This document shows, piece after piece, positions 711-35,359 of a stretch of DNA of 36,896 nt. The position numbers and the translations under genes were made by a program. Each line of letters opens with the position of its first letter. The first letter of the stretch is position 1. The stretch is from Deltaproteobacteria bacterium (GTDB lineage: Bacteria; Myxococcota; JACRCW01). A model generated the notes under the pieces. That model was not told the origin of the DNA, did no database searches, and worked only from the letters and a program-made list of their open reading frames with translations. The stretch covers positions 1 through 36,896 of the forward strand of contig JACRCW010000124.1 in NCBI GenBank assembly GCA_016218805.1, given 5' to 3'.

Positions 711-965
711 GTCAAGGAGGTGCCGGACCGGTTTTGGGCAACGCCTGTTGCGGTGCGCGCCCCATGGACGGCGAGGGAGCGCCCCGAGTCGTCTGGAGCG
801 AGCGTTCGCGGCGCGCGCACAGCGCGGCCCTGCCGAACTCCAGCCACCCCATCCCCAGCGAGATCACCGCCCGCTGGCGTCACGACTGCATGGTTCGGCC
901 GGGCCGACCGAGCCACCCGCCTGTGGACGGGTACAGGCTTGATAAGTTGGCGTTTTGTGCAAAGG

Positions 966-1102
966 CGTGAGCAGCACCATGAATGTCACGCGCATGGATG
1001 GAAACATTCGTGAGCATTACCATGCATGAGGCGAGATTCCCCAAGAACTCACGTGACTTGCCTTGTGTGGATCACGACATGCGTTTCTGTTAGACGTGAG
1101 CA
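966..1102. repeat. Degenerate 43-bp-period array of CGTGA boxes (operator- or recombination-site-like)
   Basis: CGTGA at 966, 1009, 1052 and 1095; three copies extend to CGTGAGCA. The inverse TCACG lies 20 bp into units 1 and 3 (986, 1072). Units 1 and 2 match at 17 of the first 20 bases. Confidence 0.6.
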
Positions 1103-1112
1103 CAACCCCACT

Positions 1113-1816
1113 ATGCGCATCCTTCAGCACGGCCTGACCATTGACCTGGATGAGTCGGACCCGCGCGTGGCCGTGATCCAGACGCGCCTTATGGCCGCCC
1201 GCTCCCCCCACCGCTCCCCATGCCGGCCTTGCAGACATCCTGCCCCGCAGTGCCGGAGGCCGCGCTGCGGTTCTGGCGCGCGTTGAGCCCGCTACAGCGC
1301 CGCGAACTGCTGTTGCTTGCGGACCGCCCACACACACCCATGGAGATGGAAGCTGCCCTGGGCGTCACGCAGCGGGTGCTCATGGGCCGTCATGGGAGCC
1401 TCTTGCGTTGCATGCCCAACGTCAGCGGCGAAGCCTTCCCGTTGCACGTTCCCTGTCAGTGAAAACCGGCGTTTGCCCAAACCCAGCGCTCGTTGCACCG
1501 ACGCTGTCAGACGTCGACGCGCAACGCGGTGCGTTATCCCTTCCCAGCGCCTTTGACCTTGTTCCGGCCGTTCCACCCCCGCGCGCACTCGGAACGGAAC
1601 GCCTGGGAGCAGGGGTGGTTTCTGACAGGGAGAATGCAACGAAGCCTGCCCCAGGGCATGCAACGCAACAGGAGCCTGGCGCAGTTGGCCCGGTTCCACG
1701 GGGTGGCGGTGCGCATCCGGGCGCGCGGTCGTTCGCGCGCGTTGCGGCGGTTCTACCTGGATGATGCCACGGCGGAACTGGTGCGCGCGCTGGCGGTGAA
1801 CGACGGCTGTAAGTAA
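1113..1816 (+). pseudogene. Small winged-HTH-like protein gene, interrupted by a MITE and probably frameshifted near 1190-1215
   Basis: Removing 1401-1676 fuses ORFs 1220 and 1493 in frame to give ...RELLLLADRPHTPMEMEAALGVTQRVLMGRHGSLAQLARFHGVAVRIRARGRSRALRRFYLDD.... The likely N-terminus MRILQHGLTIDLDESDPRV (ATG 1113) is in another frame. The HTH call is inference. Confidence 0.6.
1401..1670. mobile_element. 270-bp non-autonomous transposable element (MITE) with T(G/C)T...ACA ends
   Basis: Terminal inverted repeats TCTTGCGTTGCATGCCC (1401-1417) and GGGCATGCAACGCAACA (1654-1670) match 16/17. Direct repeat GGAGCC flanks it at 1395-1400 and 1671-1676. Internal CGTTGCA-N7-YGTCAG boxes at 1406, 1440, 1491, and inverted at 1622-1641 and 1646-1665 (degenerate). 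No transposase. Confidence 0.88.
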
Positions 1817-4968: not shown

Positions 4969-7900
4969 ATGACGCGCTCGACGAGGCTTGTTCCGCTGCT
5001 CCTGCTGGCTACCCAGGCGTGCAACTGCGACGACACTCTGACCGATGCCCCGGCGCCGGAGATTGTGGTTGCGGACGAGGACGGCACCGAGGCCGGCGGC
5101 CAGCCACCGCTCATCATTGAGTTTGGTGACGTGGAGATTGGCCAGCGCGTGGCGCACAAGGTGCGCATCCGCAACACCGGCAAGGCTCCGCTGGCGCTCA
5201 CCCGTGCGGCGCCGCTGGTGGATCCGGCGGACACCGTCTGCCCGGTGTCGTCCGCGGAGTTTGCCTACCCGCCGCTGTCTTCCAGCCAGGGCGTGGAGGT
5301 GGGGCCCAGCGGGGAGAAGCTGATTGAGGTGGCCTACCGGCCGCAGGACGGCGGCGGTGACTGCGCCATCATGCAGATCCTCTCCAATGACGGGGACGAA
5401 CCCGAGACGCGCGTCTACTTCCGCGCGCGCGGGTCAGCCGCGCGGTTCTGCGCGCAGGATCCGTCGCTGGACTTTGGGGACGTGGTCATTGGCCAGCAGA
5501 AGGACCTGCCCACCAAGGTGACCAACTGCGGCATCCGCACGCTGACCATCACCGCGGTGCGGGCCACCAGCTCATTCCCGCCGTTTGAGCTGCTTACGCC
5601 CGTCACCACGCCGCGCGCGCTGCAGCCGGGCGAAGAGATCCCGTTGGACTTCCGCTTCGCGCCCGTGGAGGCGCGGCGCTACGGGGGCCTGGGCGCCACG
5701 GCGGACCCGGGCGTGCTGGTGTTTGAGACGACGGAGGCGGGCGTGGGTTCGCTCACGCTGCTGGGGCGCGGTGTGACCCCGCCGGAGTGTCACCTTGTGG
5801 TGGCGCCCACGGCCATCAACTTTGGCCAGGTGGCGGTGGGCGCCTCCGCCACGCGGGACGTGCTCATCAGCAACAGCGGGGATGCGCCGTGCACGGTGGA
5901 TTCCATCTCCCGCATCTCCGGCTCCACGGACTTCTCCGTCACCGCCGGCGCGGCGCCGCCCGCCGTCACCGTGGCACCCGCGCAGGTGCAGGCCTTCACC
6001 ATCACGCTGGCACCCGCCGCGGCGGGCCTGCTCAACGCGGTGTTCCGCGTGACCAGTTCCACCACGGGCATGGATTACGACGTGAACGTGGAGGCCAACC
6101 AGCCGCCGCCGCAGGGGTGTGCGCTGGAGCCGGACCCCGCGTTCCTGAACTTTGGCACCGTGCCCATGGGGCGGGTGAACTCGCTGCCGGTGGTGCTGCG
6201 CTCCGTGGGCACCGAGGACTGCTCCGTCAAGCAGATCACCTTCCCGGCGGGGAGCCCGGAGTTCAGCACGTCCACCACCGTGCTCCCGCTCATTGGCCTG
6301 ATGGTGCCGTCCGGTGAGTCCACCAACGTCAACGTGGATTTCCGCGCGGCCAGCCCCGGGCCGCGCAGCGGGCGCATGCAGATCAAGTACGGCGAGCTGG
6401 GGTTTGGCGGCACCACCACGACGCTGAACGTGGACCTGGCCGGCAACGCCCAGGCGCCGACGTTGTGCGTGGATCCACAGGAGCTGGACTTTGGCTCCGT
6501 CCCGGTGGGGACCGAGGTGCGCCGCAGCGTGTCACTGCAAAGCTGCGGGGCCACGGAGCTCACCCTGCGCGGCGTGCAGATTGCCTCCGGGAGCAGCCCC
6601 GCGTTTGACGTACCTACGCCCCCCGCGCTGCCCGCCACCGTGCAGCCCGGCAGCGCCGTGACCGTGGAGGTCCGCTACAAGCCCACCACCGCCGCCGGAG
6701 ACCTGGGCATCCTGCAGGTGATGTCGGATGACCCCAACCTCGCCGTGGCGCCTGTGCGGCTCAAGGGCAATGCGGCCGGGCTGTGCCCGCCGCTGATGGT
6801 GTGCTCGCCCGATACGTTGGAGTTTGGCAACGTGCAGGTGGGCTTCCCGCAGACCATGGCCGTGGTGTGCCGCAACTACGGCACCCAGACGGTGACGGTG
6901 ACCTCCGCGTCCATTGCGCCCAGCCCGCCGTGGGCGCAGGCGTCCATGCTGCCGCGGTCCCTGGCGGTGGGGGATGCGCTGACCGTGCAGGTGACCCTGA
7001 CGCCGCTGACCACGGGCGCGTACTCCGGCACGCTGACGGTGAACTCCAACGCGTGTGCCAGCGCGCAGCAGGTGCAGCTCACCGCCACCGGCATCCCGCC
7101 GCTCATCCCCACCTGCACCCCGCCGGCGTCCTTCACCCCGCGCGAGGAATGGGCGTGGACCACCTCCACGGTGCACCCGCAGAAGGACCAGGTGTGGATG
7201 ACGCCGCTGGTGGTGAACCTCACGGATGACAACGGTGATGGCGCGGTGACCGCGGAGGACATCCCGGACGTGGTGTTCACGTCCTTTGACGGGCGGGACT
7301 TCAAGACCAACCCGCAGGATCCGGACATCATGGCGCCCATCAAGGCGGTGGTGCGCGCGGTCAGCGGTGATGACGGCCGCGAGCTGTGGACCGCCGGAGC
7401 CGAAGAACACATGGTGCAGAGCGAGGCCAACCTGGCCGCCGGTGACATTGACGGCGACAACCTGCCGGAGATCATTGGCAGCAAGTACGTGCTGCTGCCC
7501 GGGGAATCCATCATTCCCGACGGTCCCAAGGTGATGGGGCGGTTTGTGCGCGGCCGGCTCATCTGTTTTGACAGCCGCGGGGGCTTCAAGTGGGAGAGCG
7601 ACGAGTGGACCGCCAGCAAGGACGAGATGGAGGACAGCGGCGCGCCCGCCATTGCGGACCTGGACGGGGACGGGTTTGCGGAGGTCATCTGGCGCAACCA
7701 CGTGTTTGACGCTGCGGGTCACCTCAAGTGGGCGGGGACCGCGCGGTCCGGCTCCGCCGGGCACGGGGCGTTTTCGTTCCCGGTGGACCTCAACGGGGAC
7801 GGCACGCTGGAGGTGAGTGCCGGGTTCACGGCGTACCGCGCGGACGGGTCCATCCTGTGGAACCGGACGGACGTGCAGTTTGACGGCCTCCCCGCGGTGG

Positions 7901-8607
7901 CGGACTTTGAGGGTGACGGCACGCCGGAGGTGGTGGTGACCAACGGGTGGGTGCACATCCTCAACGGCGAGGACGGCACAGACGCCTACCCCACCATCAC
8001 GCTGCCGTACCCCGAAGGTGGCTGCTCGGAAGCCAACGCGTCCGACTGTGACACCCCCATCCCCACCAACGTGGCGCTGGCGGACTTTGACGGTGACGGG
8101 AAGCCGGAGATTGCAGTGGCCAACAAGAACCTGCTGCTGGTGCTGGAGGCCAACGGCACGGAGAACTGGCGCGTGGAGATTTCCGACCAGAGCGGCATGA
8201 GCGGACCGTCCGCGTTCGACTTTGAGGGTGACGGCATCTACGAGGTGGTCTACGCCGACGAGCAGCAGGTGTTCGCGCTGCGCGGGACGACGGGGCAGAA
8301 CATCTACACCTCGCCGCGGTCCAGCCGCACCATTGCCGAATACGCGACCATTGCGGACGTGGACAACGACGGGCACGCGAACATTGTGGTGGTGCAGAAC
8401 GAGCCGCTGCTGCGGCAGGTGAAGGGCATCAAGATGCTGGCCAACGCCACGGGCCAGTGGGCGGGGAGTTCGCGCATCTGGAACCAGCACGCCTACCACA
8501 TCACCAACGTCACGGAGTCCGGCCAGGTGCCGCGCGCCGAGCCCACGCACTGGCGCGGGGATGCGGCGCACAACAGCTTCCGTGCGCAGGGTCCGCGCTG
8601 CCAGTGA
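4969..8607 (+). CDS. Large surface lipoprotein: six Ig-like (choice-of-anchor D/ASH-like) domains plus an FG-GAP/VCBS-type beta-propeller
   Basis: Lipobox-like TQAC. Six xxFGxVxxG domain starts (IEFGDV, LDFGDV, INFGQV, LNFGTV, LDFGSV, LEFGNV). About eight DxDGDG-type Ca-binding loops in the C-terminal half. Confidence 0.85.
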   Translation: MTRSTRLVPLLLLATQACNCDDTLTDAPAPEIVVADEDGTEAGGQPPLIIEFGDVEIGQRVAHKVRIRNTGKAPLALTRAAPLVDPADTVCPVSSAEFAYPPLSSSQGVEVGPSGEKLIEVAYRPQDGGGDCAIMQILSNDGDEPETRVYFRARGSAARFCAQDPSLDFGDVVIGQQKDLPTKVTNCGIRTLTITAVRATSSFPPFELLTPVTTPRALQPGEEIPLDFRFAPVEARRYGGLGATADPGVLVFETTEAGVGSLTLLGRGVTPPECHLVVAPTAINFGQVAVGASATRDVLISNSGDAPCTVDSISRISGSTDFSVTAGAAPPAVTVAPAQVQAFTITLAPAAAGLLNAVFRVTSSTTGMDYDVNVEANQPPPQGCALEPDPAFLNFGTVPMGRVNSLPVVLRSVGTEDCSVKQITFPAGSPEFSTSTTVLPLIGLMVPSGESTNVNVDFRAASPGPRSGRMQIKYGELGFGGTTTTLNVDLAGNAQAPTLCVDPQELDFGSVPVGTEVRRSVSLQSCGATELTLRGVQIASGSSPAFDVPTPPALPATVQPGSAVTVEVRYKPTTAAGDLGILQVMSDDPNLAVAPVRLKGNAAGLCPPLMVCSPDTLEFGNVQVGFPQTMAVVCRNYGTQTVTVTSASIAPSPPWAQASMLPRSLAVGDALTVQVTLTPLTTGAYSGTLTVNSNACASAQQVQLTATGIPPLIPTCTPPASFTPREEWAWTTSTVHPQKDQVWMTPLVVNLTDDNGDGAVTAEDIPDVVFTSFDGRDFKTNPQDPDIMAPIKAVVRAVSGDDGRELWTAGAEEHMVQSEANLAAGDIDGDNLPEIIGSKYVLLPGESIIPDGPKVMGRFVRGRLICFDSRGGFKWESDEWTASKDEMEDSGAPAIADLDGDGFAEVIWRNHVFDAAGHLKWAGTARSGSAGHGAFSFPVDLNGDGTLEVSAGFTAYRADGSILWNRTDVQFDGLPAVADFEGDGTPEVVVTNGWVHILNGEDGTDAYPTITLPYPEGGCSEANASDCDTPIPTNVALADFDGDGKPEIAVANKNLLLVLEANGTENWRVEISDQSGMSGPSAFDFEGDGIYEVVYADEQQVFALRGTTGQNIYTSPRSSRTIAEYATIADVDNDGHANIVVVQNEPLLRQVKGIKMLANATGQWAGSSRIWNQHAYHITNVTESGQVPRAEPTHWRGDAAHNSFRAQGPRCQ

Positions 8608-21916: not shown

Positions 21917-22570
21917 ATGAACGGCTTTTTGTGTGACGGGCCGGAGGCCGCCGGGGCGCTGGTGCTGCTTGCCCACGGCGCGGGCGGCCCCATGGACAGC
22001 GCGCTGCTCACCCGCCTGGCCGGCGGCCTGGGCGGCGCGGGGCACCGGGTGGTCCGCTTTGAGTTCCCGTACATGGCTGCGCGCCGCACGGGCGGGGGCC
22101 GGCGCCCGCCGGACCGCACGGACGTCCTGCTGCAGTGCTGGCGGGAGGTGGCCGCGCGGTGGCGGGATCACCGGCCGCTGTTCCTGGGCGGGCACTCCAT
22201 GGGCGGGCGCATGGCCACCATGGTGGCCGACGAACTGGGCGCGGCCGGGCTGGTTTGCGTTTCTTACCCGTGGCACCCGCCGGGCGCTCCCGGGCGCCCG
22301 CGCACGGAGCACCTCAAGGCGCTGGCCACGCCGGCGCTGCTGGTGTGCGGCACGCGGGATGAGTTCGGCACGCCGGAGGAGGTGGCGGGCTACGCGCTGT
22401 CACCCGCGCTGCGCGTGCACTGGCTGCCCGGCGCGGACCACAGCCTGCGCGCGCACGCGCGCTCCGGGCGGACGGCCACAGGCAACATCCGGGAGTGCGT
22501 GGACGCGCTGGATGCGTTCATCCGTGCACGCGCCGGCCTCACGGCGCCAGCAGCTTCTCCAGCAGGCTGA
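21917..22570 (+). CDS. Alpha/beta hydrolase (KANL3/Tex30-like family)
   Basis: LAHGAGGPMD, RFEFPYM, nucleophile elbow GHSMGG, GTRDEFG, GADHSL. Confidence 0.88.
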   Translation: MNGFLCDGPEAAGALVLLAHGAGGPMDSALLTRLAGGLGGAGHRVVRFEFPYMAARRTGGGRRPPDRTDVLLQCWREVAARWRDHRPLFLGGHSMGGRMATMVADELGAAGLVCVSYPWHPPGAPGRPRTEHLKALATPALLVCGTRDEFGTPEEVAGYALSPALRVHWLPGADHSLRAHARSGRTATGNIRECVDALDAFIRARAGLTAPAASPAG

Positions 22571-23018
22571 TCGCGTTGGGCTCGCGGCAGCGGCTGCGGA
22601 ACGCCTCCAGCGCGTCACGCACGGTCATGGTGCGGTTGAGCTTGCCGCGCGCGTGCAGTGCGCCCAGCTCCGCCAGCGCGCGCTCGCCCACGCCCGCGTC
22701 GGAGTGGCGCAGCATCTTGCACAACAGCTCGGGCTCGTCCGGCATCTGGTGGTGCCGCAGCAGCGCGTCACACGCCTGGTCCAGCTCCGCGGGGTCCACC
22801 GCGCCGCGCAGCCGCTCCATGCGCATACGGGACTCCATGGCCCCGCCGGACGGGCCCAGGCCGCGCGGCCCGGGCGGTGGCGGCCCCCCACCGCCCCCCT
22901 TGTCAAACAGCGCGTTGAGCCGGTTGAACTTGGCGCCGTGCGGCTTGGACGGCGCCACCGGGTTCACCTCGCGCGGGGCGAACGGGTTGTCAGGCAGCTT
23001 GGGATCCCTGGGCGGCAT
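22539..23018 (-). CDS. Hypothetical helical protein
   Basis: GGAGG RBS before ATG 23018, GC3-rich codons, LNALFDKG and MPDEPELLCKML.H segments. Confidence 0.65.
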   Translation of the reverse strand: MPPRDPKLPDNPFAPREVNPVAPSKPHGAKFNRLNALFDKGGGGGPPPPGPRGLGPSGGAMESRMRMERLRGAVDPAELDQACDALLRHHQMPDEPELLCKMLRHSDAGVGERALAELGALHARGKLNRTMTVRDALEAFRSRCREPNAISLLEKLLAP

Positions 23019-23165
23019 GCAGGCCTCCGGCGTAGGTTGGGGTGGGACATGGTGGCGGCAGGCCCAGAGGCACGCAACCCGTTTCCCTCTGCGCCAGCGC
23101 GCGGGGTCAGCATTCCAATGGAAACTGGAGCGGGGCCCCTCCCGCGTGGTTTCCTGCGGAGCACC

Positions 23166-26100
23166 ATGGGCCACCGTCGTCTGCTGCTGTTGTGGATTGC
23201 CCTCAGTGCTGCTGCCTGTCCGCGCATTGTCACCCAGGGTCCGCCGGACGCTGCCACGGAGGCACCGGTCATCATCACCGGCGTGGAGGTGGAAGCGCTG
23301 CGGGTCCCGCGCGACGGCGGCGTGCACCTGGCCTACGGCGGGGACGTGCTGGCGGTCACGGGAAGCGGCTGGGACCCGGCGGCGGCCACTGTGCAGCTGG
23401 GGGGCGTGGACCTGGCCATGCTGCGGGACCGCTCCACAGTGACGGCGCTGCGCGCGGTGCTGCCGGAGCGCGTGCTGGAGGGGACGGTGAAGGTGCTCCA
23501 GGGGGGACGCGTGCGCGCTGAGAGCCCCGCGCTCGTGGCCGTGCTGGGCGTGGGCCACCCGGACCTGCCGGTGCAGCAGGGGGCGGTGGAGCCGCGCATG
23601 GCCATCCGGGCGGCGGGGATTGCCAACACCTGGTGCGCTCCCAGCCTGGCCGACGGTGGCGTGCCGTGCAGCGCGCTCCCCAACGCCACCGGCACGCTCG
23701 CCGTGGCGTTCTCGTTCGGGCCGGACCTGCTGTACCGGGATCCGACGTACCTGGCGGAGTTGACGCTGTTTGGTCCGGGCGAACGGATCACGGAGCGCCT
23801 GGAGCCGGCACACACGGACTACCGCTCGGTGGCGGCGGCCAAGCCGTTCCTGGTGCCGCGCCCCGGCGGGCGGTTCGATACGGGCCTGGCGGTGCACCAG
23901 GCATGGAGCGCGGACGGCGGGTTCGGCATCAGCGTGGACACCTTCCCGCCGCAGATGGACGGCGGCGGCCTGGAGTTGCACCCCGTGCTGCTGCCGGGCC
24001 CGCGCGGTGGGTTGCTGACGCTCGCCGTGGAACGCGTGAACCAGGTGGAGCAGCGCTCGCTGCTGCTGGACAACGGGCGCCCGGTGCTGCGGCGCGACGG
24101 CACGCCCATGTCCATTGAAGGACGGCTGGCTGCGGTGGGCGGCGTGGTGCAGGGGTATGACTTCCTGGCGGATGCCTACGGCGAAGCGGAGTTTGTGGCG
24201 GCGTCCTGCGGGGATGTCACGCCGGATGGGCGTCTGCCCGTGCGGCTGACGCGGCTGTTTCAGCCTTCCGGCGACGTGCTCACGCAGGAGCAGGGGGTGC
24301 CGCTGGACGGGTGGGGGTGCCGCGTGGACGGCGGGCCCAACCCGGCGCTGGACGGCGGCCAGCAGGCGCAGTGTGACGCGCTGCAGGACTGCGGCGAGGG
24401 CTGTTTCTTCACGTCGCTGTGTTCGCTCATGCCGACGTGCCGTCCCGGCCTGGGGGACATGAACACGTGCCTGCGCGACTCCGCGGGGTGCCGCGGGCGC
24501 GTGCTGACGGCGTCCGCGTGCCTGGGGACGGAGGGATGCGGCGTGCGCGCGGCGGGTTGCCCGGGCGCGGACGGTGGCCCCTGCCCGTGCAACGACGCGC
24601 CGTGCCGGGTCACGCGCCAGTGCTTCCTGGATGCGCCGTGCCTGGCGGCGCTGGGCTGCTACGGGGACGGTGAGGGCCTGTGCATCCTGCCGCCGGCGTG
24701 CGCGGCCGCGGCGGACCGCGGCCCGGACGCGGGGCCCGGCCCCGAGGGCGAAACGTGCGCAGCGCAGGTGGCCTGCATGCTGGACCCCGCGTGCGCGGAC
24801 CGCGCGGAGTGCCCGGCGGGAGGCTGCACGGCCACCGCGGCGTGTGCGCGGTCACTGTGCCCCACGGAGCCGTGCGGCAATGGCCAGGAATGCGGGCGCC
24901 CGTCAGACGACGCGCCGGGCGAATTGTCGCCGTTGGTGCCGGGCAGCCTGCTGGTGCACCCCGGGCGCGCGCTCAGCCCGTTCCAGGCGCCGCCGGAGCC
25001 CGTGTGCACGTTTGAGACCTTCCGCGGCCGCCTGTTGCCCTTTGGCCTGGACGGCTACTACGTCAGCAGCGCGGCCACGCTCTCCGCCGACGGGACGCAC
25101 CACCTGGTGGCCCGTCCGGCGGGCGGCACGGAGCGCATCCTGCTTGTCATGGACCTGGAGACGCTGGGGTTCTCCGTGGTGTCCGCCTCCGCCGCGTACG
25201 CGGACCTGCTGGCCGTTGCCGGCGCTCCGCTGCTGTTTGGCATCCCGGCGGAGGGCGGCCAGGTGCACGTCCTGGACGAACGCGCCCAGTTCCGCTTTGC
25301 GCTCAACGTGCTGGGCCCGGCCACGCATGCCTTCCCGCGGCCGCGTTCCGACGGCCGCGTGCTGGTGTTGCACCCCGGGTTTGTGCTGGAGCTGGACGGC
25401 AACGGTGGGGTGGAGCGGCACGCGTTCCACGGGGCTCCGCTGGCGGCTCCGCAGCTCCCGGAGCAGCCCGGCGCAGCCCCTTCCGCGCTGTGGGCGGTTC
25501 GCCCCCTTGAGGTGGGGCCGCCGGAACTGGTGCAGGTCAGCCTGGCTGATGACACCTTTGGCGAAGTCTCCGCGGCGGGCACGCTCCCGGCGGACAGCCT
25601 GCCGGAGGGACGCGCGCTGGGGGATGCGTTCCTGGGCGCGGTGGCTACCGGGGACACCGTGTTCCTCAACGTGTCCACCGGCGCCACCGCGGAGTGTGAC
25701 CAGGACGCGCAGGTGGTGGCCGTGCGGCCCTCCGCAACGGGCACCGGAGATGTGACCTGGTCACCCGTGGCGGGCACGTGCGGCGGGGCCATCACCGCGT
25801 TCAACCCGGTGGACCGCACCGGCCTGGTGGTGGTGCCCGTGGAGGGCGGCTACCAGACGGATATCGTCGGAGAGACAGGCGGCACGTGGCACACGCTGGA
25901 CCGGCGCATCCCGCAGATTGCGTTTGGCGCAGCGCCGCGCCCCGCGGGTGGTTTTGTGGGTCTGTTTGCCGCGGACGTGGGCGGCGCGGCGCGCCTGGAA
26001 CTGGGTCTGGTGGCACCCGCCACGGCTGACGCGGGCCCGCCCTACCAGCGCCTGATGGACGCGGAGACCTCAGACGCCGTGATGGTGGTGAGCCCGGATG

Positions 26101-26327
26101 GACAGCGGTTGTACGTGGGCGGGTTGGACCGGGTGCTGGAGGTGGAACTGGTGGAGCGCTGCCGTGACGCTGACGCCGGCGCGGGTTGCGCCCCGTGGGA
26201 ACTGCGGGCGGAACCGCGGCGCGCCATTGCCATTGACGGGCGCGCGCACCACCTGGCCGTGGATCCCGAGGGTACCCGCGTGGTGTACGTGGACCTGGAG
26301 CGGCAGAGCGTGGGCGTGCTGGAATAG
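23166..26327 (+). CDS. Large lipoprotein with an IPT/TIG-like domain, central Cys-rich region and beta-propeller-like segments
   Basis: GGAG RBS, MGHRRLLLLWIALSAAAC lipobox, GGDVLAVTGSGW IPT-like motif, SPDGQRLYV and AVDPEGTRVV blades. Confidence 0.75.
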   Translation: MGHRRLLLLWIALSAAACPRIVTQGPPDAATEAPVIITGVEVEALRVPRDGGVHLAYGGDVLAVTGSGWDPAAATVQLGGVDLAMLRDRSTVTALRAVLPERVLEGTVKVLQGGRVRAESPALVAVLGVGHPDLPVQQGAVEPRMAIRAAGIANTWCAPSLADGGVPCSALPNATGTLAVAFSFGPDLLYRDPTYLAELTLFGPGERITERLEPAHTDYRSVAAAKPFLVPRPGGRFDTGLAVHQAWSADGGFGISVDTFPPQMDGGGLELHPVLLPGPRGGLLTLAVERVNQVEQRSLLLDNGRPVLRRDGTPMSIEGRLAAVGGVVQGYDFLADAYGEAEFVAASCGDVTPDGRLPVRLTRLFQPSGDVLTQEQGVPLDGWGCRVDGGPNPALDGGQQAQCDALQDCGEGCFFTSLCSLMPTCRPGLGDMNTCLRDSAGCRGRVLTASACLGTEGCGVRAAGCPGADGGPCPCNDAPCRVTRQCFLDAPCLAALGCYGDGEGLCILPPACAAAADRGPDAGPGPEGETCAAQVACMLDPACADRAECPAGGCTATAACARSLCPTEPCGNGQECGRPSDDAPGELSPLVPGSLLVHPGRALSPFQAPPEPVCTFETFRGRLLPFGLDGYYVSSAATLSADGTHHLVARPAGGTERILLVMDLETLGFSVVSASAAYADLLAVAGAPLLFGIPAEGGQVHVLDERAQFRFALNVLGPATHAFPRPRSDGRVLVLHPGFVLELDGNGGVERHAFHGAPLAAPQLPEQPGAAPSALWAVRPLEVGPPELVQVSLADDTFGEVSAAGTLPADSLPEGRALGDAFLGAVATGDTVFLNVSTGATAECDQDAQVVAVRPSATGTGDVTWSPVAGTCGGAITAFNPVDRTGLVVVPVEGGYQTDIVGETGGTWHTLDRRIPQIAFGAAPRPAGGFVGLFAADVGGAARLELGLVAPATADAGPPYQRLMDAETSDAVMVVSPDGQRLYVGGLDRVLEVELVERCRDADAGAGCAPWELRAEPRRAIAIDGRAHHLAVDPEGTRVVYVDLERQSVGVLE

Positions 26328-29849: not shown

Positions 29850-31091
29850 ATGTCCATCCCGCAGCCGGCCAGCCCAGACCCGCGCGCCCTCCGCGAAAAG
29901 TTCCAGCGCGTGGCGGATGCGCTCGCCAGCCAGTTCCTGGGCAAGGAGGAGACCGCGCGGCTGATGCTGATCTGCGCCGCCGCCGGCGAGCACCTGGTCC
30001 TCATCGGCCCGCCGGGCACCGCCAAGAGCGCCGTGGTGCGGTCGTTCGCACGGTTGGTGGACGCGCGCTACTTTGAATACCTGCTCACCCGCTTCTCTGA
30101 GCCCAATGAGGTGTTTGGCCCGGTGGACCTGCAGGCGTTCCGCGCCGGCCGCTACCACCGTGTGACCACGGGCATGCTGCCGGAAGCGGAGATTGCCTTC
30201 CTGGACGAGGCGTTCAAGGCCAACAGCGCCATCCTCAATTCGCTGCTGTCCATCCTCAATGAACGCCGCTTCTCCAACGGCGCGGACACCGTGCACGTGC
30301 CGCTCATCAGCATGTTTGCGGCCTCCAATGAGGTCCCGCAGGACGACGCGCTGCACGCCATCTTTGACCGGTTCATCATCCGCGTGCACGCCGACAACGT
30401 GGACAGCTTCCACTTCCACGACCTGCTGCAGAAGGGCCTGGCCCTGGAGCGCGCCGCCATCACCGAGCGGGAAGCCGCCGAGGCCAAGATCCGCGCGCCG
30501 CTCAAGATGGGCCTGGCCGCCGCGGACCTGCAGGCGTGCCAGAAGCACCTGCTGAGCGTGGTGCAGTTCCCCGAGGACTTCCTGGCCACCTACAAGGGCC
30601 TGTGCTTCCAGATCCGCGCGGAAGGCGTGAGCCTGTCAGACCGGCGCGCGGTGAAGCTGCTCAAACTGTTTGCCGCCAGCGCCGTCATTGACGGGCGCGC
30701 GGTGGTGCATGACGGGGACCTGGCCATCCTGCGGCACATCTGGAACCAGATGGACCAGCGGGAGATCCTCCATGACCTGGTGGATCCCGTCGTCACGCGC
30801 TTCTTCAATGAACACCCGGAGACCGCGCCGCGGCTGCCGCGCCCGGACCTGGACAAGCTGGTCACCGAGCTGACGCTGGTGCACCGCCTGCTGACCTCCG
30901 GCCAGGAACTTTCCGACATCCAGGTGTTCAGCCACCTGCGCGCGCTGGATGACCTGCGCAAGGGCTTCCAGGTTGTTGGCGGGCCCACCGCGCAGCAGAT
31001 GATTGACCGCATTGACGCGTTGACCCGCACACTGCTGGAGGGCCGCGGCCCGGCGGCGGCGGGCGCACGGCGGCAGGGCCCCGCCCGCTGA
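29850..31091 (+). CDS. MoxR-family AAA+ ATPase, RavA-like
   Basis: GPPGTAKS, FEYLLTRFSEPNEVFGP, FLDEAFKANSAILNSLL, ASNE, DRF, SDRR. Confidence 0.9.
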   Translation: MSIPQPASPDPRALREKFQRVADALASQFLGKEETARLMLICAAAGEHLVLIGPPGTAKSAVVRSFARLVDARYFEYLLTRFSEPNEVFGPVDLQAFRAGRYHRVTTGMLPEAEIAFLDEAFKANSAILNSLLSILNERRFSNGADTVHVPLISMFAASNEVPQDDALHAIFDRFIIRVHADNVDSFHFHDLLQKGLALERAAITEREAAEAKIRAPLKMGLAAADLQACQKHLLSVVQFPEDFLATYKGLCFQIRAEGVSLSDRRAVKLLKLFAASAVIDGRAVVHDGDLAILRHIWNQMDQREILHDLVDPVVTRFFNEHPETAPRLPRPDLDKLVTELTLVHRLLTSGQELSDIQVFSHLRALDDLRKGFQVVGGPTAQQMIDRIDALTRTLLEGRGPAAAGARRQGPAR

Positions 31092-31402: not shown

Positions 31403-32515
31403 GTGTTGCGCTCCCGCCACCCGATCCTTGACTTCCTGCAGGAGCGGCTGGTCAAGGCGCTGGCCATCTTCGTCGGGACGTGGTTGCTCGGCGGGCTCGG
31501 GCTCTACCTCATCGGGTGGACGTTCCACATGCCCACGGAGATGAACGCGCCGGACGGCAGCGCGGACGCCGGCAACTGGTCACTCGGGAACTGCCTGTGG
31601 ATGGCCACCATGACGGTGAGCACGCTGGGCATGGGGGACCTCTCCATGTTCAGCCGCCTGCCCGTGCTGGGACGGCAGGTCGTCTACGCGTACATGATCG
31701 CCTACACGCTCATCAGCTACCTGCTGGTCCTCTACGCGTCCGCGCAGACCATCAGCTACGTGGTTGAAGGCGCACTGGGCCGCTACCTGGAGACGCGCCG
31801 CATGCAACGTGACCTCAACGAATTGGACAAGCACTTTGTGGTCTGCGGGCTGGGCTCCACCGGGCTGCACATTGTGCAGGAGCTGGTGAAGGTGAAAGCC
31901 ACCGTGGTGGGCGTGGACACCGCGCCGGAGAAGGTGGCCCACGCCAAGACCCTGTTCCCCACCGAGCTGTTCCTGGACGGTGACGGGACGCAGGATGACA
32001 CCCTGGAGCGGATTGGCATCCGGCGGGCGGCCGGGTTCTTTGCCGCCATGGGTGAGGACAAGGACAACATCATTGCCGTGCTGGCCGCGCGCCAGGTCAA
32101 TCCCGCGGCGCGCGTGGTGGCGCGCGCACAGGAGAGCCAGAACATTGAGAAGCTCAAGCGCGTGGGCGCCAACGTCACCATCTGCCCCACGCAGATTGGC
32201 GGCATGCGCATGGCGTCCGAGATGGTCCGCCCGGCGGTGACCACGTTCCTGGACACCATGCTGCGCAGCCAGAACTCCACCGTGCGGTTTGAGAACGTGA
32301 TCCTGCGCGAGAACGGCCCCGCCGCCGGCCGCATGCTCAAGGAACTGGACCTGCGCGGGCGCACGGGGCTCATTGTGGTGGCCACGGTCAAGGCGGGCGG
32401 CCAGATTGCCTACAATCCCGGGCCGGACACGCGCGTGGATGGCGGGGATGCTGTCGTTGTCATCACCACGCCGGACCAGAAGCGCGTGCTGGAGACACTG
32501 CTCAACGGCGCATGA
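31403..32515 (+). CDS. 2-TM potassium channel-family protein with RCK (TrkA-N/TrkA-C) domains
   Basis: TM1, pore helix, TVSTLGMGD filter, TM2, then HFVVCGLGSTG, GDGT, DKDN and PTQIGGMRMA. Confidence 0.9.
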   Translation: MLRSRHPILDFLQERLVKALAIFVGTWLLGGLGLYLIGWTFHMPTEMNAPDGSADAGNWSLGNCLWMATMTVSTLGMGDLSMFSRLPVLGRQVVYAYMIAYTLISYLLVLYASAQTISYVVEGALGRYLETRRMQRDLNELDKHFVVCGLGSTGLHIVQELVKVKATVVGVDTAPEKVAHAKTLFPTELFLDGDGTQDDTLERIGIRRAAGFFAAMGEDKDNIIAVLAARQVNPAARVVARAQESQNIEKLKRVGANVTICPTQIGGMRMASEMVRPAVTTFLDTMLRSQNSTVRFENVILRENGPAAGRMLKELDLRGRTGLIVVATVKAGGQIAYNPGPDTRVDGGDAVVVITTPDQKRVLETLLNGA

Positions 32516-32521
32516 CCCGCT

Positions 32522-32550
32522 TTGACAATCCGCGGGTGCGACCCAATCCT
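32522..32550 (+). promoter_or_regulatory. Putative sigma70 promoter for the leader ORF-secA paralog unit
   Basis: Perfect TTGACA (32522-32527), 17 bp, AATCCT (32545-32550). ATG follows at 32560. Confidence 0.5.
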
Positions 32551-32559
32551 GTGGGCGCC

Positions 32560-32868
32560 ATGCCCCGGTGGACCCGCACCATCCCGGTTGCCCTGCGCGC
32601 GATGATCGCGTGCCTGGTCCTGCTGCTGGGCGGCGGCGTCGCGTCGGGCGCGCCTGCCCGGGAGCAGGCCACCGAGTACCGGGTGCCAGCCTCCCCGTCC
32701 ACGACGACACCCGCGCCCCGCATGGCTGTAACCCGGGCGCGCGTGGTGTACCCCCGCTGGGTGCCCCAGGCTGCGGTCACAAGCCGCGACATGCAGCCGT
32801 GGCGCGTGCACCCGCCCGCACCCAACCCCGTTCCCGTCTATCTCCGGCATTGCGCTCTCCTGCGGTGA
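32560..32868 (+). CDS. Signal-peptide-bearing leader ORF upstream of the secA paralog (candidate arrest/monitoring peptide)
   Basis: Basic N-terminus, hydrophobic MIACLVLLLGGGVASG, low-complexity linker, C-terminal HPPAPNPVPVYLRHCALLR. Alternative start at 32512. Confidence 0.55.
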   Translation: MPRWTRTIPVALRAMIACLVLLLGGGVASGAPAREQATEYRVPASPSTTTPAPRMAVTRARVVYPRWVPQAAVTSRDMQPWRVHPPAPNPVPVYLRHCALLR

Positions 32869-32921
32869 GGCGCGCCAACGCTCGCGTTGGCCCGTCCCGT
32901 TCCACCCATTCCCTGGAGAGC
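32854..32921 (+). promoter_or_regulatory. Predicted RBS-sequestering mRNA structure (translational attenuator)
   Basis: GCTCTCC (32854-32860) is the exact complement of GGAGAGC (32915-32921, containing the SD). It encloses the hairpin GCCAACG-CTCG-CGTTGGC (32874-32891). Confidence 0.55.
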
Positions 32922-32923
32922 CC

Positions 32924-35359
32924 ATGTCCCCCGTTCAACCGGCGCCCCCGGCGCTGCCCGCATCCGCCACCCCATTCCGGACGCGCCTGAACCGCGCGGT
33001 CCGCCGCTGGCGCGGTGAGCGCACCGCGTATGGGCTGGAGCCGTTTGCCACAACGTTGCGCGCGCTGGAGCGCACGGACCTGCGCGCGCTGGCTGACGCC
33101 GAGCTGCTGGCGCGTGCCCGGGCGCTGCGCGGGCCCACACCGGATGAGACCGCGGTCTTTGCGCTGGTGCGGGAAGCCGCGCGCCGCGCGCTGGGGCTGG
33201 AGGCGCATGCCTGCCAACTGGCGGCGGGGCTGGCCATGGTGCGCGGCCGCGTGGCGGAGTTGCCCACCGGCGAAGGCAAGACGCTGGCCGCGGTGTTCAC
33301 CGCCGTGTGGCACGGGCTCAGCGGGCGGGGCGTGCACGTGCTGACGTTCAATGACTACCTGGCGCGGCGCGATGCCGCGTGGATGGGGCCGGTGTACCGG
33401 CTGCTGGGCGTGACCGTGGGGTGCGTCCAGGAAGGGCAGTCCGCGGCGGAAAAGCGCGCGGCGTACGCCGCCGACGTCACCTACGGCACCGCCAAGGAAG
33501 TGGGTTTTGACTTCCTGCGTGACGGCATCGCGCTGGACGCGGACCCGTGCGTACACCGGCCGTTCCACGCGGTCATTGTGGATGAAGCGGACTCCGTGCT
33601 GGTGGACGAGGCCCGCGTGCCGCTGGTGCTGGCCGGCGTGGACGAAGGCGGCGGCCCCGACGTGCGGCGCGTGGTGGAACTGACGCGCGGGATGCAGCGG
33701 GGCGTGGACTTTGAGACGGATGCCGAACAGCGCAACGTGTTCCTCACCGACGCGGGCGCGCGGCAGCTGGAGTCCGCGCTGGGCTGCGCCAGCCTGTATG
33801 ACGGTACCAACCAGGGGCTGTTGGAGGCCGCGCACTGCGCCCTGCACGCGCACGCCCTGCTCCACCGCGACGTGGACTACCTGGTGCGCGACGGGCGCAT
33901 CCAGGTCATTGACGAGTTCACCGGCCGCATCATGGAGAAGCGCCACTGGCCGGACGGGATCCAGGCCGCGCTGGAGGCCAAGGAGGGGATGGACCGGCGC
34001 ACCCGCGGGCGCGTGCTGGGCTCCATCACGCTGCAACACTTCCTGCGCCTCTACCCGCACCTGGCCGGCATGACGGCCACCGCCCAGGCCGCCGCCGAGG
34101 AACTGCAGGCCTTCTACCGCGTGGACGTGCACGTGCTCCCGCCGCACACGCCCAGCCACCGCACGGACCAGCCGGACGCGGTGTTCACCCACCAGGCGGC
34201 CAAGCGGCGCGCGCTGCTGGACGAGATAGGCCGCGTCCACGCCACGGGACGCCCCATCCTGGTGGGAACGCTCAGCGTGGCGGAGTCCGAGGACCTGGCC
34301 GCCGCCCTCCAGGCCGCCGGGGTCCGGTGCGCGGTGCTCAATGCGCGCAATGACCAGGAGGAGGCGGCGGTCATTGCGGAGGCCGGTGCGCTGGGCGCGG
34401 TGACCATCTCCACCAACATGGCGGGGCGGGGCACGGACATCCGCCTGGGTGGTTCGGATGAACGGGAGCGCGCCGCCGTGGTGGCGCTGGGCGGGCTGTA
34501 CGTCCTGGGCACCAACCGCCATGAAAGCGTCCGCGTGGACCGCCAGCTGCGCGGCCGCGCGGGGCGCCAGGGGGACCCGGGCTCCACGCGTTTCTTCATT
34601 GCCCTGGATGATGACCTGTTCCGCCGCTACGGGCTGACGGACGCGGTGTTTGCGCGGCATGGACTGCAACGGCGTGACGGCGAAGTGGACCACGGCGGGC
34701 TGCGCGCGGACGTGGAACACGCGCAGCGGGTCATTGAGGGACAGTGTTTTGACATCCGCCATGACCTGTTCCGGTACTCCAACGTGGTGGAGCAGCAGCG
34801 GCGGCTGGTGCGGGCCCGGCGGGAGGCGGTCCAGCGCGGTGACCCGGAGGCCCGCGCGTGGGAGGCCGCGGAACCCCAGCTGTATGCGCGCGCCGTGGCG
34901 CGGTGGGGGGCCGCACGGGCCGCCCGCGTGGAGCGCAACGCACACCTGCTGGCGCTGGACCGCGCGTGGGCGGAACACCTCTGCTGGGTGACTGACACGC
35001 GCGAGACCGTGCACCTGGTCAGCCTGAGCGGCCAGACACCGGTGGTGGAGTTCCGCCGCTGGTGCACGGAGGCGTTCGCGCGCCGCATGGAACAAATGGA
35101 CCAGGACCTCACGGGCGCGCTGGCCGGCGTGCTTGCCCGGGAGGACGCCGCGCTGGACGAACTGGAGCACGCCCGGGGGCCGTCCTCCACGTGGACCTAC
35201 CTGGTCAATGACGACCCGTTCCAGTCCGGCTTTGAGCTGCTCAAGGGCGGGGCGCTGGGGTTCTCCGCCATTGCCGCGGGCGTGTACGGGCCGCTGTTGC
35301 TGGCGTGGCTGGTGGTGCGCCGGTGGTGGGGCGGAAAGCGCGGCGGCAAACCAGCATGA
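32924..35359 (+). CDS. secA2: SecA paralog (accessory SecA2-like ATPase) with a hydrophobic C-terminal tail
   Basis: TGEGKT, NDYLARRDA, VDEADSVLVDEAR, DEFTGR, GMTATA, STNMAGRGTDI, QLRGRAGRQGDPG. 811 aa, no C-terminal Zn-binding motif. Confidence 0.88.
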   Translation: MSPVQPAPPALPASATPFRTRLNRAVRRWRGERTAYGLEPFATTLRALERTDLRALADAELLARARALRGPTPDETAVFALVREAARRALGLEAHACQLAAGLAMVRGRVAELPTGEGKTLAAVFTAVWHGLSGRGVHVLTFNDYLARRDAAWMGPVYRLLGVTVGCVQEGQSAAEKRAAYAADVTYGTAKEVGFDFLRDGIALDADPCVHRPFHAVIVDEADSVLVDEARVPLVLAGVDEGGGPDVRRVVELTRGMQRGVDFETDAEQRNVFLTDAGARQLESALGCASLYDGTNQGLLEAAHCALHAHALLHRDVDYLVRDGRIQVIDEFTGRIMEKRHWPDGIQAALEAKEGMDRRTRGRVLGSITLQHFLRLYPHLAGMTATAQAAAEELQAFYRVDVHVLPPHTPSHRTDQPDAVFTHQAAKRRALLDEIGRVHATGRPILVGTLSVAESEDLAAALQAAGVRCAVLNARNDQEEAAVIAEAGALGAVTISTNMAGRGTDIRLGGSDERERAAVVALGGLYVLGTNRHESVRVDRQLRGRAGRQGDPGSTRFFIALDDDLFRRYGLTDAVFARHGLQRRDGEVDHGGLRADVEHAQRVIEGQCFDIRHDLFRYSNVVEQQRRLVRARREAVQRGDPEARAWEAAEPQLYARAVARWGAARAARVERNAHLLALDRAWAEHLCWVTDTRETVHLVSLSGQTPVVEFRRWCTEAFARRMEQMDQDLTGALAGVLAREDAALDELEHARGPSSTWTYLVNDDPFQSGFELLKGGALGFSAIAAGVYGPLLLAWLVVRRWWGGKRGGKPA

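Follow-up and report, generated by a model that had tools for sequence, protein, structure and literature searches.

The subject of this analysis is a 36,896-nucleotide (nt) stretch of Deltaproteobacteria bacterium DNA (contig JACRCW010000124.1, hereafter the window), in which a 102-amino-acid (aa) open reading frame (ORF) lies directly upstream of a gene for a SecA paralog of the SecA2 type. With moderate confidence, we read this ORF and the RNA around its 3′ end as a SecM-like leader that masks secA2's Shine-Dalgarno (SD) sequence and governs translation of a membrane-anchored SecA2. The module would be related by position and descent to RAPP-like upstream ORFs (uORFs) and would be unmasked by ribosomes on the last leader codons. 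The reading is carried by the sequence features of the locus, the coding-like composition of the ORF, the structure predicted for the RNA and the recurrence of the same architecture across orthologous loci. An earlier reading of the DNA letters (the sequence-only reading) had proposed a secretion monitor at this place.

The Ala-Leu-Leu codons near the leader end, GCTCTCC (32854-32860), are the exact complement of GGAGAGC (32915-32921) in the SD region of secA2, and the two arms enclose a perfect 7-bp hairpin. This pairing had been pointed out in the sequence-only reading and was borne out by both the sequence and the fold. Folding of positions 32830-32940, which had also been suggested there, gave a stable stem that covers both the SD and the AUG of secA2. 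The predicted energy was -37.2 kcal/mol, compared with -28.07 +/- 2.61 kcal/mol for shuffled sequences (z = -3.5), and 0 of 200 shuffles were as stable. The pairing probability of the SD in the window was 1.00, with partners at positions -8 to -11, counted from the end of the leader stop, and the secA2 AUG was predicted to pair with a CAU His codon of the leader. The pattern GCTCTCC-N40-70-GGAGAGC, which was chosen post hoc, occurs once in the window versus 0.01 times expected. Because no U-tract follows the inner hairpin and a terminator scan found 0 sites at the locus, this hairpin is not terminator-like.

The effect of a translating ribosome on the stem was modeled by forbidding pairing under the ribosome footprint and recomputing the cost of opening 32912-32926. 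The predicted cost was 11.4 kcal/mol without a ribosome. It fell to 4.5-6.1 kcal/mol only with the P site at 32848-32863, and stayed at 9.6-11.2 kcal/mol with the ribosome further upstream. In silico, the SD is thus held in a structure that a ribosome at the leader end would disrupt. The passage or termination of a ribosome over the last codons would unmask the SD as well. A possible stall at the in-frame HPPAP (about 32808-32822) was weighed and rejected, because a ribosome placed there leaves the opening cost at 9.6-11.2 kcal/mol.

The leader ORF was found as the sequence-only reading had described it, with a signal or transmembrane segment and a stop 55 nt before the ATG of the secA paralog (32924). 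It looks coding, since its G+C content at the three codon positions (GC1/GC2/GC3) is 0.73/0.63/0.86, a pattern as in real genes (0.65-0.78/0.42-0.50/0.89-0.91 in the neighboring genes). The peptide is already present as a called gene in the protein library. The upstream K+ channel gene, the leader ORF and secA2 are all on the same strand, and without the ORF the 408 nt between the two flanking genes would be empty. With ATG 32512 as an alternative start, the ORF would be 118 aa long, and this start forms an ATGA overlap (32512-32515) with the stop codon of the K+ channel gene. The export signal was judged by hydropathy alone. The hydrophobic span covers residues 7-33, with Arg residues before it and 69 residues after it, and the Kyte-Doolittle maximum over 15 residues is 2.45. 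No Pfam or NCBIfam match was found for the leader ORF. Published screens for monitoring substrates look for a small uORF by a sec or yidC gene, an N-terminal signal or transmembrane segment, a conserved C-terminus and a spacer of more than 30 aa (the set of Sakiyama 2021 / Fujiwara 2024, taken from PMC10987492). The window leader is a small uORF of no known function that shares its strand with the sec gene immediately downstream, carries such an N-terminal segment by hydropathy, and has a spacer well over 30 aa; no conservation of its C-terminus was seen.

The architecture recurs upstream of other secA2 genes. Loci were gathered from the genomes of relatives, from species-representative genomes and from metagenome contigs, with a best SecA2 identity of 56-62%. 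The set consisted of 24 loci of the clade whose SecA2 bears a hydrophobic tail, the window counted, each with at least 300 nt upstream; L041 and L052 were excluded (no upstream DNA). A small same-strand uORF with a hydrophobic N-terminus was found at 16 of the 24 loci, the window included (13 distinct after near-identical contigs were collapsed). The clade uORFs end 46-80 nt before secA2, and all 15 uORFs other than that of the window end with P-P-containing motifs. At 11 loci (L034, L035, L038, L039, L040, L042, L043, L045, L049, L050, and L051), uORFs of 71-75 aa stop 58 nt short of secA2 and have LAPxx[FL]RSPPF-stop as their end. L033, which is the closest ortholog (60-62% identity), has a 78-aa uORF that ends in SASLRGPPFTV-stop, 59 nt upstream. 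In this RSPPF/RGPPF family (71-78 aa), the N-terminal half is long and hydrophobic, an anti-SD located at the stop or immediately behind it pairs with GGAGGAG, and the members look like RAPP-like arrest peptides. Both RGPP and RSPP are among the RAPP-like query motifs (PMC10987492). RGPP is reported to be the strongest arrest core and RSPP to be permissive, and a change of the final Pro (RAGA) is reported to abolish SecM arrest (PMC12992588). The uORFs of L005, L006, and L056, which come from another family and three genera, are 102-109 aa long and carry FSGLSPP 4-8 residues before the stop, together with a signal-peptide-like N-terminus and a common xPW[ST] patch. With Leu in the place where RAPP-like motifs have Arg/Gln/His (compare uA_LPPP of Planctomycetota), LSPP may be a separate motif type.

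Masking of the SD was predicted along with the uORFs. The SD was paired (P 0.76-1.00) at 12 of the 13 distinct uORF-bearing loci, the exception being L006, which has no recognizable SD at the assumed start. At 10 of these 12 loci, the sequence paired with the SD is located between -18 and +13 nt relative to the uORF stop. In the longer fold, the SD of L040 and L049 prefers a C/U-rich stretch deeper in the uORF, and in the shorter fold it pairs with the post-stop CCUCCUCC. The anti-SD of the RSPPF loci is this CCUCCUCC, immediately 3′ of the stop. In L005 it is formed by the P-P-V-A-A-F codons, and in L033 by the G-P-P-F codons themselves, with an inner hairpin after the stop, like the window. 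At distinct loci without a uORF, an SD-like motif was present in only two of six and was less paired (0.26 and 0.64).

The downstream gene fits a SecA2-type paralog, as judged from its model score and from the presence of a second, housekeeping SecA. Its product carries the Pfam domains SecA_DEAD, P-loop_SecA, SecA_PP_bind, and SecA_SW and scores 797.1 bits on the NCBIfam equivalog TIGR04221 (SecA2_Mycobac), for which the cut-off is 725. A canonical 1024-aa SecA with a Cys-rich C-terminal end is encoded separately on contig C95, and no monitoring-type uORF was seen upstream of that gene. The C-terminal hydrophobic tail of SecA2 is no part of the TIGR04221 model. It is common to the eight orthologs examined (L004, L005, L033, L034, L035, L054, L055, and L056), is preceded in this clade by a conserved ...STWTYLVN[DE]... 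block, and is lacking in five more distant paralogs (L007, L008, and L057-L059). This suggests that the clade consists of tail-anchored SecA paralogs. With the window protein as query, the paralog was found in 12 of the 401 genomes of the phylum sample, in 2 of 4 genomes of the class (that of the window included) and in 4 of 18 genomes of the class of G005. In a quick maximum-likelihood tree of SecA2, with supports from the Shimodaira-Hasegawa-like approximate likelihood ratio test (SH-aLRT), the window protein was sister to L033 (98), and this pair was sister to the RSPPF-uORF clade (100). The tree, which is quick and has long branches, suggests that the uORF-secA2 module spread horizontally.

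Within the same tree, the window SecA2 groups with contigs labelled Aminicenantes and "Eubacteriales," not with G002 (51% identity, no uORF). Two Cys-rich secreted proteins are encoded upstream of the G002 secA2, at 9-362 and 405-1307 of L004 (reverse orientation). The C-terminus of each is made up of a short motif with Cys, a hydrophobic stretch and a cluster of Arg residues, an arrangement that resembles a C-terminal sorting tail, possibly of the MYXO-CTERM kind.

From these observations, a mechanism can be proposed. The leader would be co-transcribed with secA2, and its last codons, that is the anti-SD GCUCUCC and the CAU codon, would pair over a long range with the SD and AUG of secA2, in a stem closed over the inner hairpin. 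The secA2 start would then be masked unless a ribosome occupies the last ~6 leader codons or the stop. The module would be derived from, and built like, the LR[SG]PPF monitoring uORFs that precede the closest secA2 orthologs, with the motif no longer in frame. Unmasking would depend on translation, and ribosomes that are slow at the leader 3′ end, or that simply pass or terminate on it, are the most likely present-day mechanism. Export of the peptide, any stalling and the regulatory output are inferred, and a force-sensitive arrest relieved by export is possible.

Several observations weigh against this reading. The structural evidence is purely a thermodynamic prediction, and when the anti-SD is masked, the SD still makes weak scattered pairs (summed P ~0.8, none above 0.57). 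Eight of the 24 loci (6 distinct), namely L004, L054, L055, L036, L044, L046, L047, and L048, are without a uORF. Among them are the loci of G045 and of G002, the one other genome of the class that holds the paralog; the clade can thus do without the leader. The in-frame leader end, ...VYLRHCALLR-stop (...HPPAPNPVPVYLRHCALLR-stop), has no R/Q/H-x-P-P motif nearby. The leader peptide had no homolog except itself in a word-indexed library of 5.8 billion proteins (E <= 1), and a full phmmer search of 1.84 billion representatives gave no homolog (E <= 0.001). Because the leader is an orphan in both libraries, conservation of its C-terminus is not seen and selection on its sequence is not apparent. 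Its C-terminus also failed to align with the uORFs of orthologous loci, and a full-length alignment was uninformative. No relative with a SecA2 identity above 62% was found in the genome and metagenome scans. Signals for expression of the leader are poor as well. Neither leader ATG (32512 or 32560) is preceded by a clear SD, and the proposed promoter is weak, so that there is no convincing start signal. The hexamers and the 17-nt spacing that the sequence-only reading had put forward as a promoter are indeed present, but they do not rise above chance: AATCCT agrees with TATAAT at 3 of 6 positions, a promoter scan of 32000-33500 returned 0 sites, and TTGACA occurs 5 times in the window versus 7.9 expected. 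A transcript from this promoter would have nearly no leader before ATG 32560.

Other explanations of the locus were weighed on the same evidence. An unlikely one sees in the leader the frameshifted remnant of a monitor of the LRSPP type, in which one base was gained or lost at about 32800-32845, both second prolines were changed to Ala, and the stem now gives only passive coupling or constant repression. It draws on a stretch that reads LSPALRSPAV in the -1 frame. The Arg codon of this stretch precedes the secA2 ATG by 71 nt; the corresponding distances are 75 nt at the RSPPF loci and 82 nt for L033. With TCT for Ser in the window and AGC in L034, the resemblance concerns the amino acids rather than the nucleotides. 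The expectation for [LF]RSP is 0.0023 per 40 positions, and the tree puts the window inside the R[SG]PPF-uORF clade. Before correction, resampled local alignment against the R[SG]PPF set gave p values of 0.014-0.033 in the -1 frame and of 0.08-0.13 in the ORF frame. However, p is ~0.1 for the -1 frame after the six tests (3 frames x 2 motif sets) are corrected for, and the likeness was noticed post hoc. A profile hidden Markov model (HMM) of nine R[SG]PPF ends, built with the window excluded, gave the site 2.0 bits and rank 5251 of 205,987 six-frame genome matches. Moreover, Ser-Pro arises automatically in the -1 frame because CUCUCC is needed as the anti-SD, and this frame has no nearby stop, being open to 32990. 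Low-stringency tblastn searches of the uORFs against 32500-32930 gave weak matches of the ORF frame (frame A) to the mid-region of L056 (E = 8e-4, with a database of 431 nt) and of the -1 frame to the tail of L033 (E = 0.008); these matches were rejected as decisive evidence, since composition correction was off. The regular expression L[SA]P.{1,2}[LF]RSP (3 genome matches) was discounted as built after the window had been seen, and the profile and resampling were preferred. Visual inspection of 32800-32845 showed no classical -1 slippery heptamer, and programmed frameshifting was dropped for that reason. A variant of the relic explanation takes the shift as an assembly error, with ...LRSPAV... 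in the real peptide. An independent contig from the probable source run, at a depth of 26, matches the window exactly across 32400-33000 and shows no indel, though it comes from the same read set, and three other sequencing runs do not reach 32736-32862. None of the sequencing runs listed for the locus was of RNA. An assembly frameshift in the leader is unlikely. Taken with its limits, the LRSPA resemblance hints moderately at an origin of the leader from a monitor of the LRSPP type, followed by a shift of frame.

It is rather improbable that the locus is a true secretion monitor whose in-frame end, ...PVPVYLRHCALLR-stop, represents a new arrest class. On this explanation, the ribosome would stall on the UGA or immediately ahead of it, would stay there until the peptide is pulled by Sec or SecA2, and would free the SD while stalled. 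The position by a sec gene, the signal, the spacer of more than 30 aa and a stem under the footprint at the end of the ORF all fit, and the sequence-only reading had argued along these lines. The layout that it described (an export signal, an SD-masking 3′ end and a secA paralog) stands and recurs at 15 orthologous loci; the conserved C-terminus expected of a monitor does not. In frame, the end bears no likeness to a characterized arrest motif. The last ~15 residues hold no R/Q/H-[A/G/S]-P-P and no RAGP/RAPG, so that the leader falls outside the RAPP-like (RQH) class, and ...RVHPPAPNPVPVYLRHCALLR-stop places no RAPP-like motif near a stall-competent position. With no homolog of the peptide in either library, with P-P ends at all 15 other clade uORFs (LRGPPF, LRSPPF, and FSGLSPP), and with RGPP and RSPP already published, the idea of a different motif class is not supported. 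Because conservation of the leader end cannot be shown, such a class is unsupported beyond architecture. A narrower form of the idea, which we hold to be clearly improbable, is that ...PVPVYLRHCALLR-UGA is an unseen arrest sequence that acts at termination and that replaced an ancestral LR[SG]PP while the SD-masking stem was kept. If true, one monitoring leader would have swapped its stalling chemistry within a single secA2 lineage. Finally, the product of the ORF could be a small secreted or membrane protein of an ordinary kind, such as a partner or substrate of SecA2, or the ORF could go untranslated, with a stem that is incidental in GC-rich DNA. All frames of this DNA are rich in long ORFs (65 with 40 aa or more in 6.9 kb), the antisense frame 32502-32825 is likewise GC3-rich (0.85), and the leader peptide is an orphan. 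On the other hand, the GC1 > GC2 << GC3 pattern speaks for the + frame over the antisense frame, and the ORF fills the otherwise empty same-strand gap. The exact 7-nt anti-SD/SD match, the AUG pairing and the z-score of the fold also speak against chance, as does the recurrence of a uORF with a masked SD at orthologous loci. We regard this explanation as very improbable. The favored reading remains the SD-masking leader opened by ribosomes on its last codons.

The coordinates of the features are collected in Table 1. The G+C content is ~70% across the window. The intergenic segment is not repeated elsewhere in the genome, and an Rfam scan of 32300-33100 gave one sub-threshold chance match only, to a eukaryotic long non-coding RNA model (18.5 bits versus a gathering score of 60). 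The secA2 frame is open for 64 codons 5′ of its ATG (32732-32923), giving an open frame of 875 aa versus 811 aa. It is +1 relative to the leader, and a +1 shift at the leader UGA would run into SecA2; this upstream openness is probably mere stop-codon scarcity in GC-rich DNA. Two genes upstream of the leader, at 29850-31091, lies a bpMoxR AAA+ ATPase gene of the MoxR-vWA-beta-propeller ternary-system type (Pfam). Farther away, a 1464-aa ORF at 21933-26327 has no Pfam match, and a 1212-aa ORF at 4969-8607 contains ASH/HYDIN-like immunoglobulin and FG-GAP repeats.

Table 1. Positions of the leader, its RNA elements and neighboring genes in the window, and of uORFs at orthologous loci (numbered within each locus).
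Feature	Position	Strand	Remarks
RCK/TrkA-type K+ channel gene	31403-32515	+	TrkA_N, TrkA_C, and Ion_trans_2 domains (Pfam); upstream neighbor of leader ORF
Promoter-like TTGACA-17-AATCCT	32522-32550	+	TTGACA 32522-32527, 17-nt spacer, AATCCT 32545-32550; weak
Leader ORF, 102 aa plus stop	32560-32868	+	ATG 32560, 102 codons, TGA 32866-32868
Signal-peptide-like N-terminal segment	32560-32658	+	Arg-containing n-region, hydrophobic core, then ...SGAPA
LSPALRSPAV, -1 frame relative to ORF	32838-32867	+	resembles LAPxxLRSPPF / SLRGPPF ends at orthologous loci
Anti-SD GCUCUCC	32854-32860	+	Ala-Leu-Leu codons near leader end; pairs with 32915-32921 in minimum free energy and centroid structures
Leader stop codon TGA	32866-32868	+	from sequence and ORF list
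Inner hairpin GCCAACG-CUCG-CGUUGGC, extended by GGCG/CGUC	32869-32896	+	perfect 7-bp core 32874-32891; no U-tract after
secA2 SD GGAGAG(C) plus ATG	32915-32926	+	both base-paired in predicted structure
SecA paralog gene, SecA2 type, 811 aa	32924-35359	+	downstream neighbor of leader ORF
SecA2 C-terminal hydrophobic tail, then Arg/Lys cluster	35249-35317	+	by hydropathy; predicted membrane anchor
RSPPF uORFs	L034:1836-2051; L035:2158-2385; L040:1851-2078; L042:2147-2374; L043:28-255; L045:2159-2386; L049:2150-2377; L050 stop ends 2244		
L033 uORF	886-1122		ends LRGPPFTV-stop
FSGLSPP uORFs	L005 1083-1409; L006 826/931-1239; L056 1578-1904		L005 is a reverse-oriented copy

Monitoring leaders make the ribosome itself a sensor of how much capacity the secretion machinery of the cell has. 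The present results show that a patchily distributed clade of membrane-anchored SecA2, from uncultured environmental bacteria, usually carries a leader of the monitoring type. Monitoring leaders for SecA2-type genes are already in print, at least as untested candidates (PMC10987492): RAPP uORFs lie upstream of genes annotated as accessory Sec translocase SecA2 in three Acidobacteriota genomes (supplementary file 9 of the same paper). The leaders of this clade hold at least two motif types, LR[SG]PPF and FSGLSPP. In the searched part of the supplementary text of PMC10987492, RSPPF, LRGPPF, SGLSPP, and HCALLR were not found. The window copy keeps the RNA switch and not the peptide motif, and so offers a natural test of the stem alone (coupling) versus the stall; it may record the decay or change of such leaders. 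For the regulation of housekeeping Sec, members are added and nothing is overturned.

Plain translational coupling, in which an SD-occluding stem is opened by ribosomes translating the upstream cistron, is a general mechanism of bacterial operons. The window resembles it in that the 5′ arm of its stem lies inside the last leader codons, so each terminating ribosome should open the stem. However, coupling alone fails to explain a small orphan ORF with an export signal or the P-P arrest-type ends kept at orthologous loci. SecM-secA, MifM-yidC2 and VemP-secDF2 share the stalled-leader layout, and a stem-loop model has been drawn for SecM (PMC10987492). MifM-yidC2 of Bacillus subtilis and VemP-secD2F2 of Vibrio are monitoring substrates whose arrest exposes a downstream SD (PMC10987492, PMC11470409), but they serve other machinery genes, and their arrest sequences are unrelated to the window peptide. 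SecM-secA of Escherichia coli is alike in having a signal-bearing small ORF next to secA and an SD-masking stem opened by a ribosome near the leader 3′ end, which for the window is predicted. In contrast to SecM, the window leader has no FxxxxWIxxxxGIRAGP-like sequence and no sequence homology to it, and its downstream gene encodes a membrane-anchored SecA2-type paralog and not the housekeeping SecA. The RAPP-like peptides (RQH family, ApdA/ApdP-type) that precede secA or secDF (Fujiwara et al., 2024, PMC10987492) share both the gene context and the uORF design of the window. While the window leader itself holds only the out-of-frame LRSPA, RGPP or RSPP stands near the C-terminus at its closest orthologous loci.

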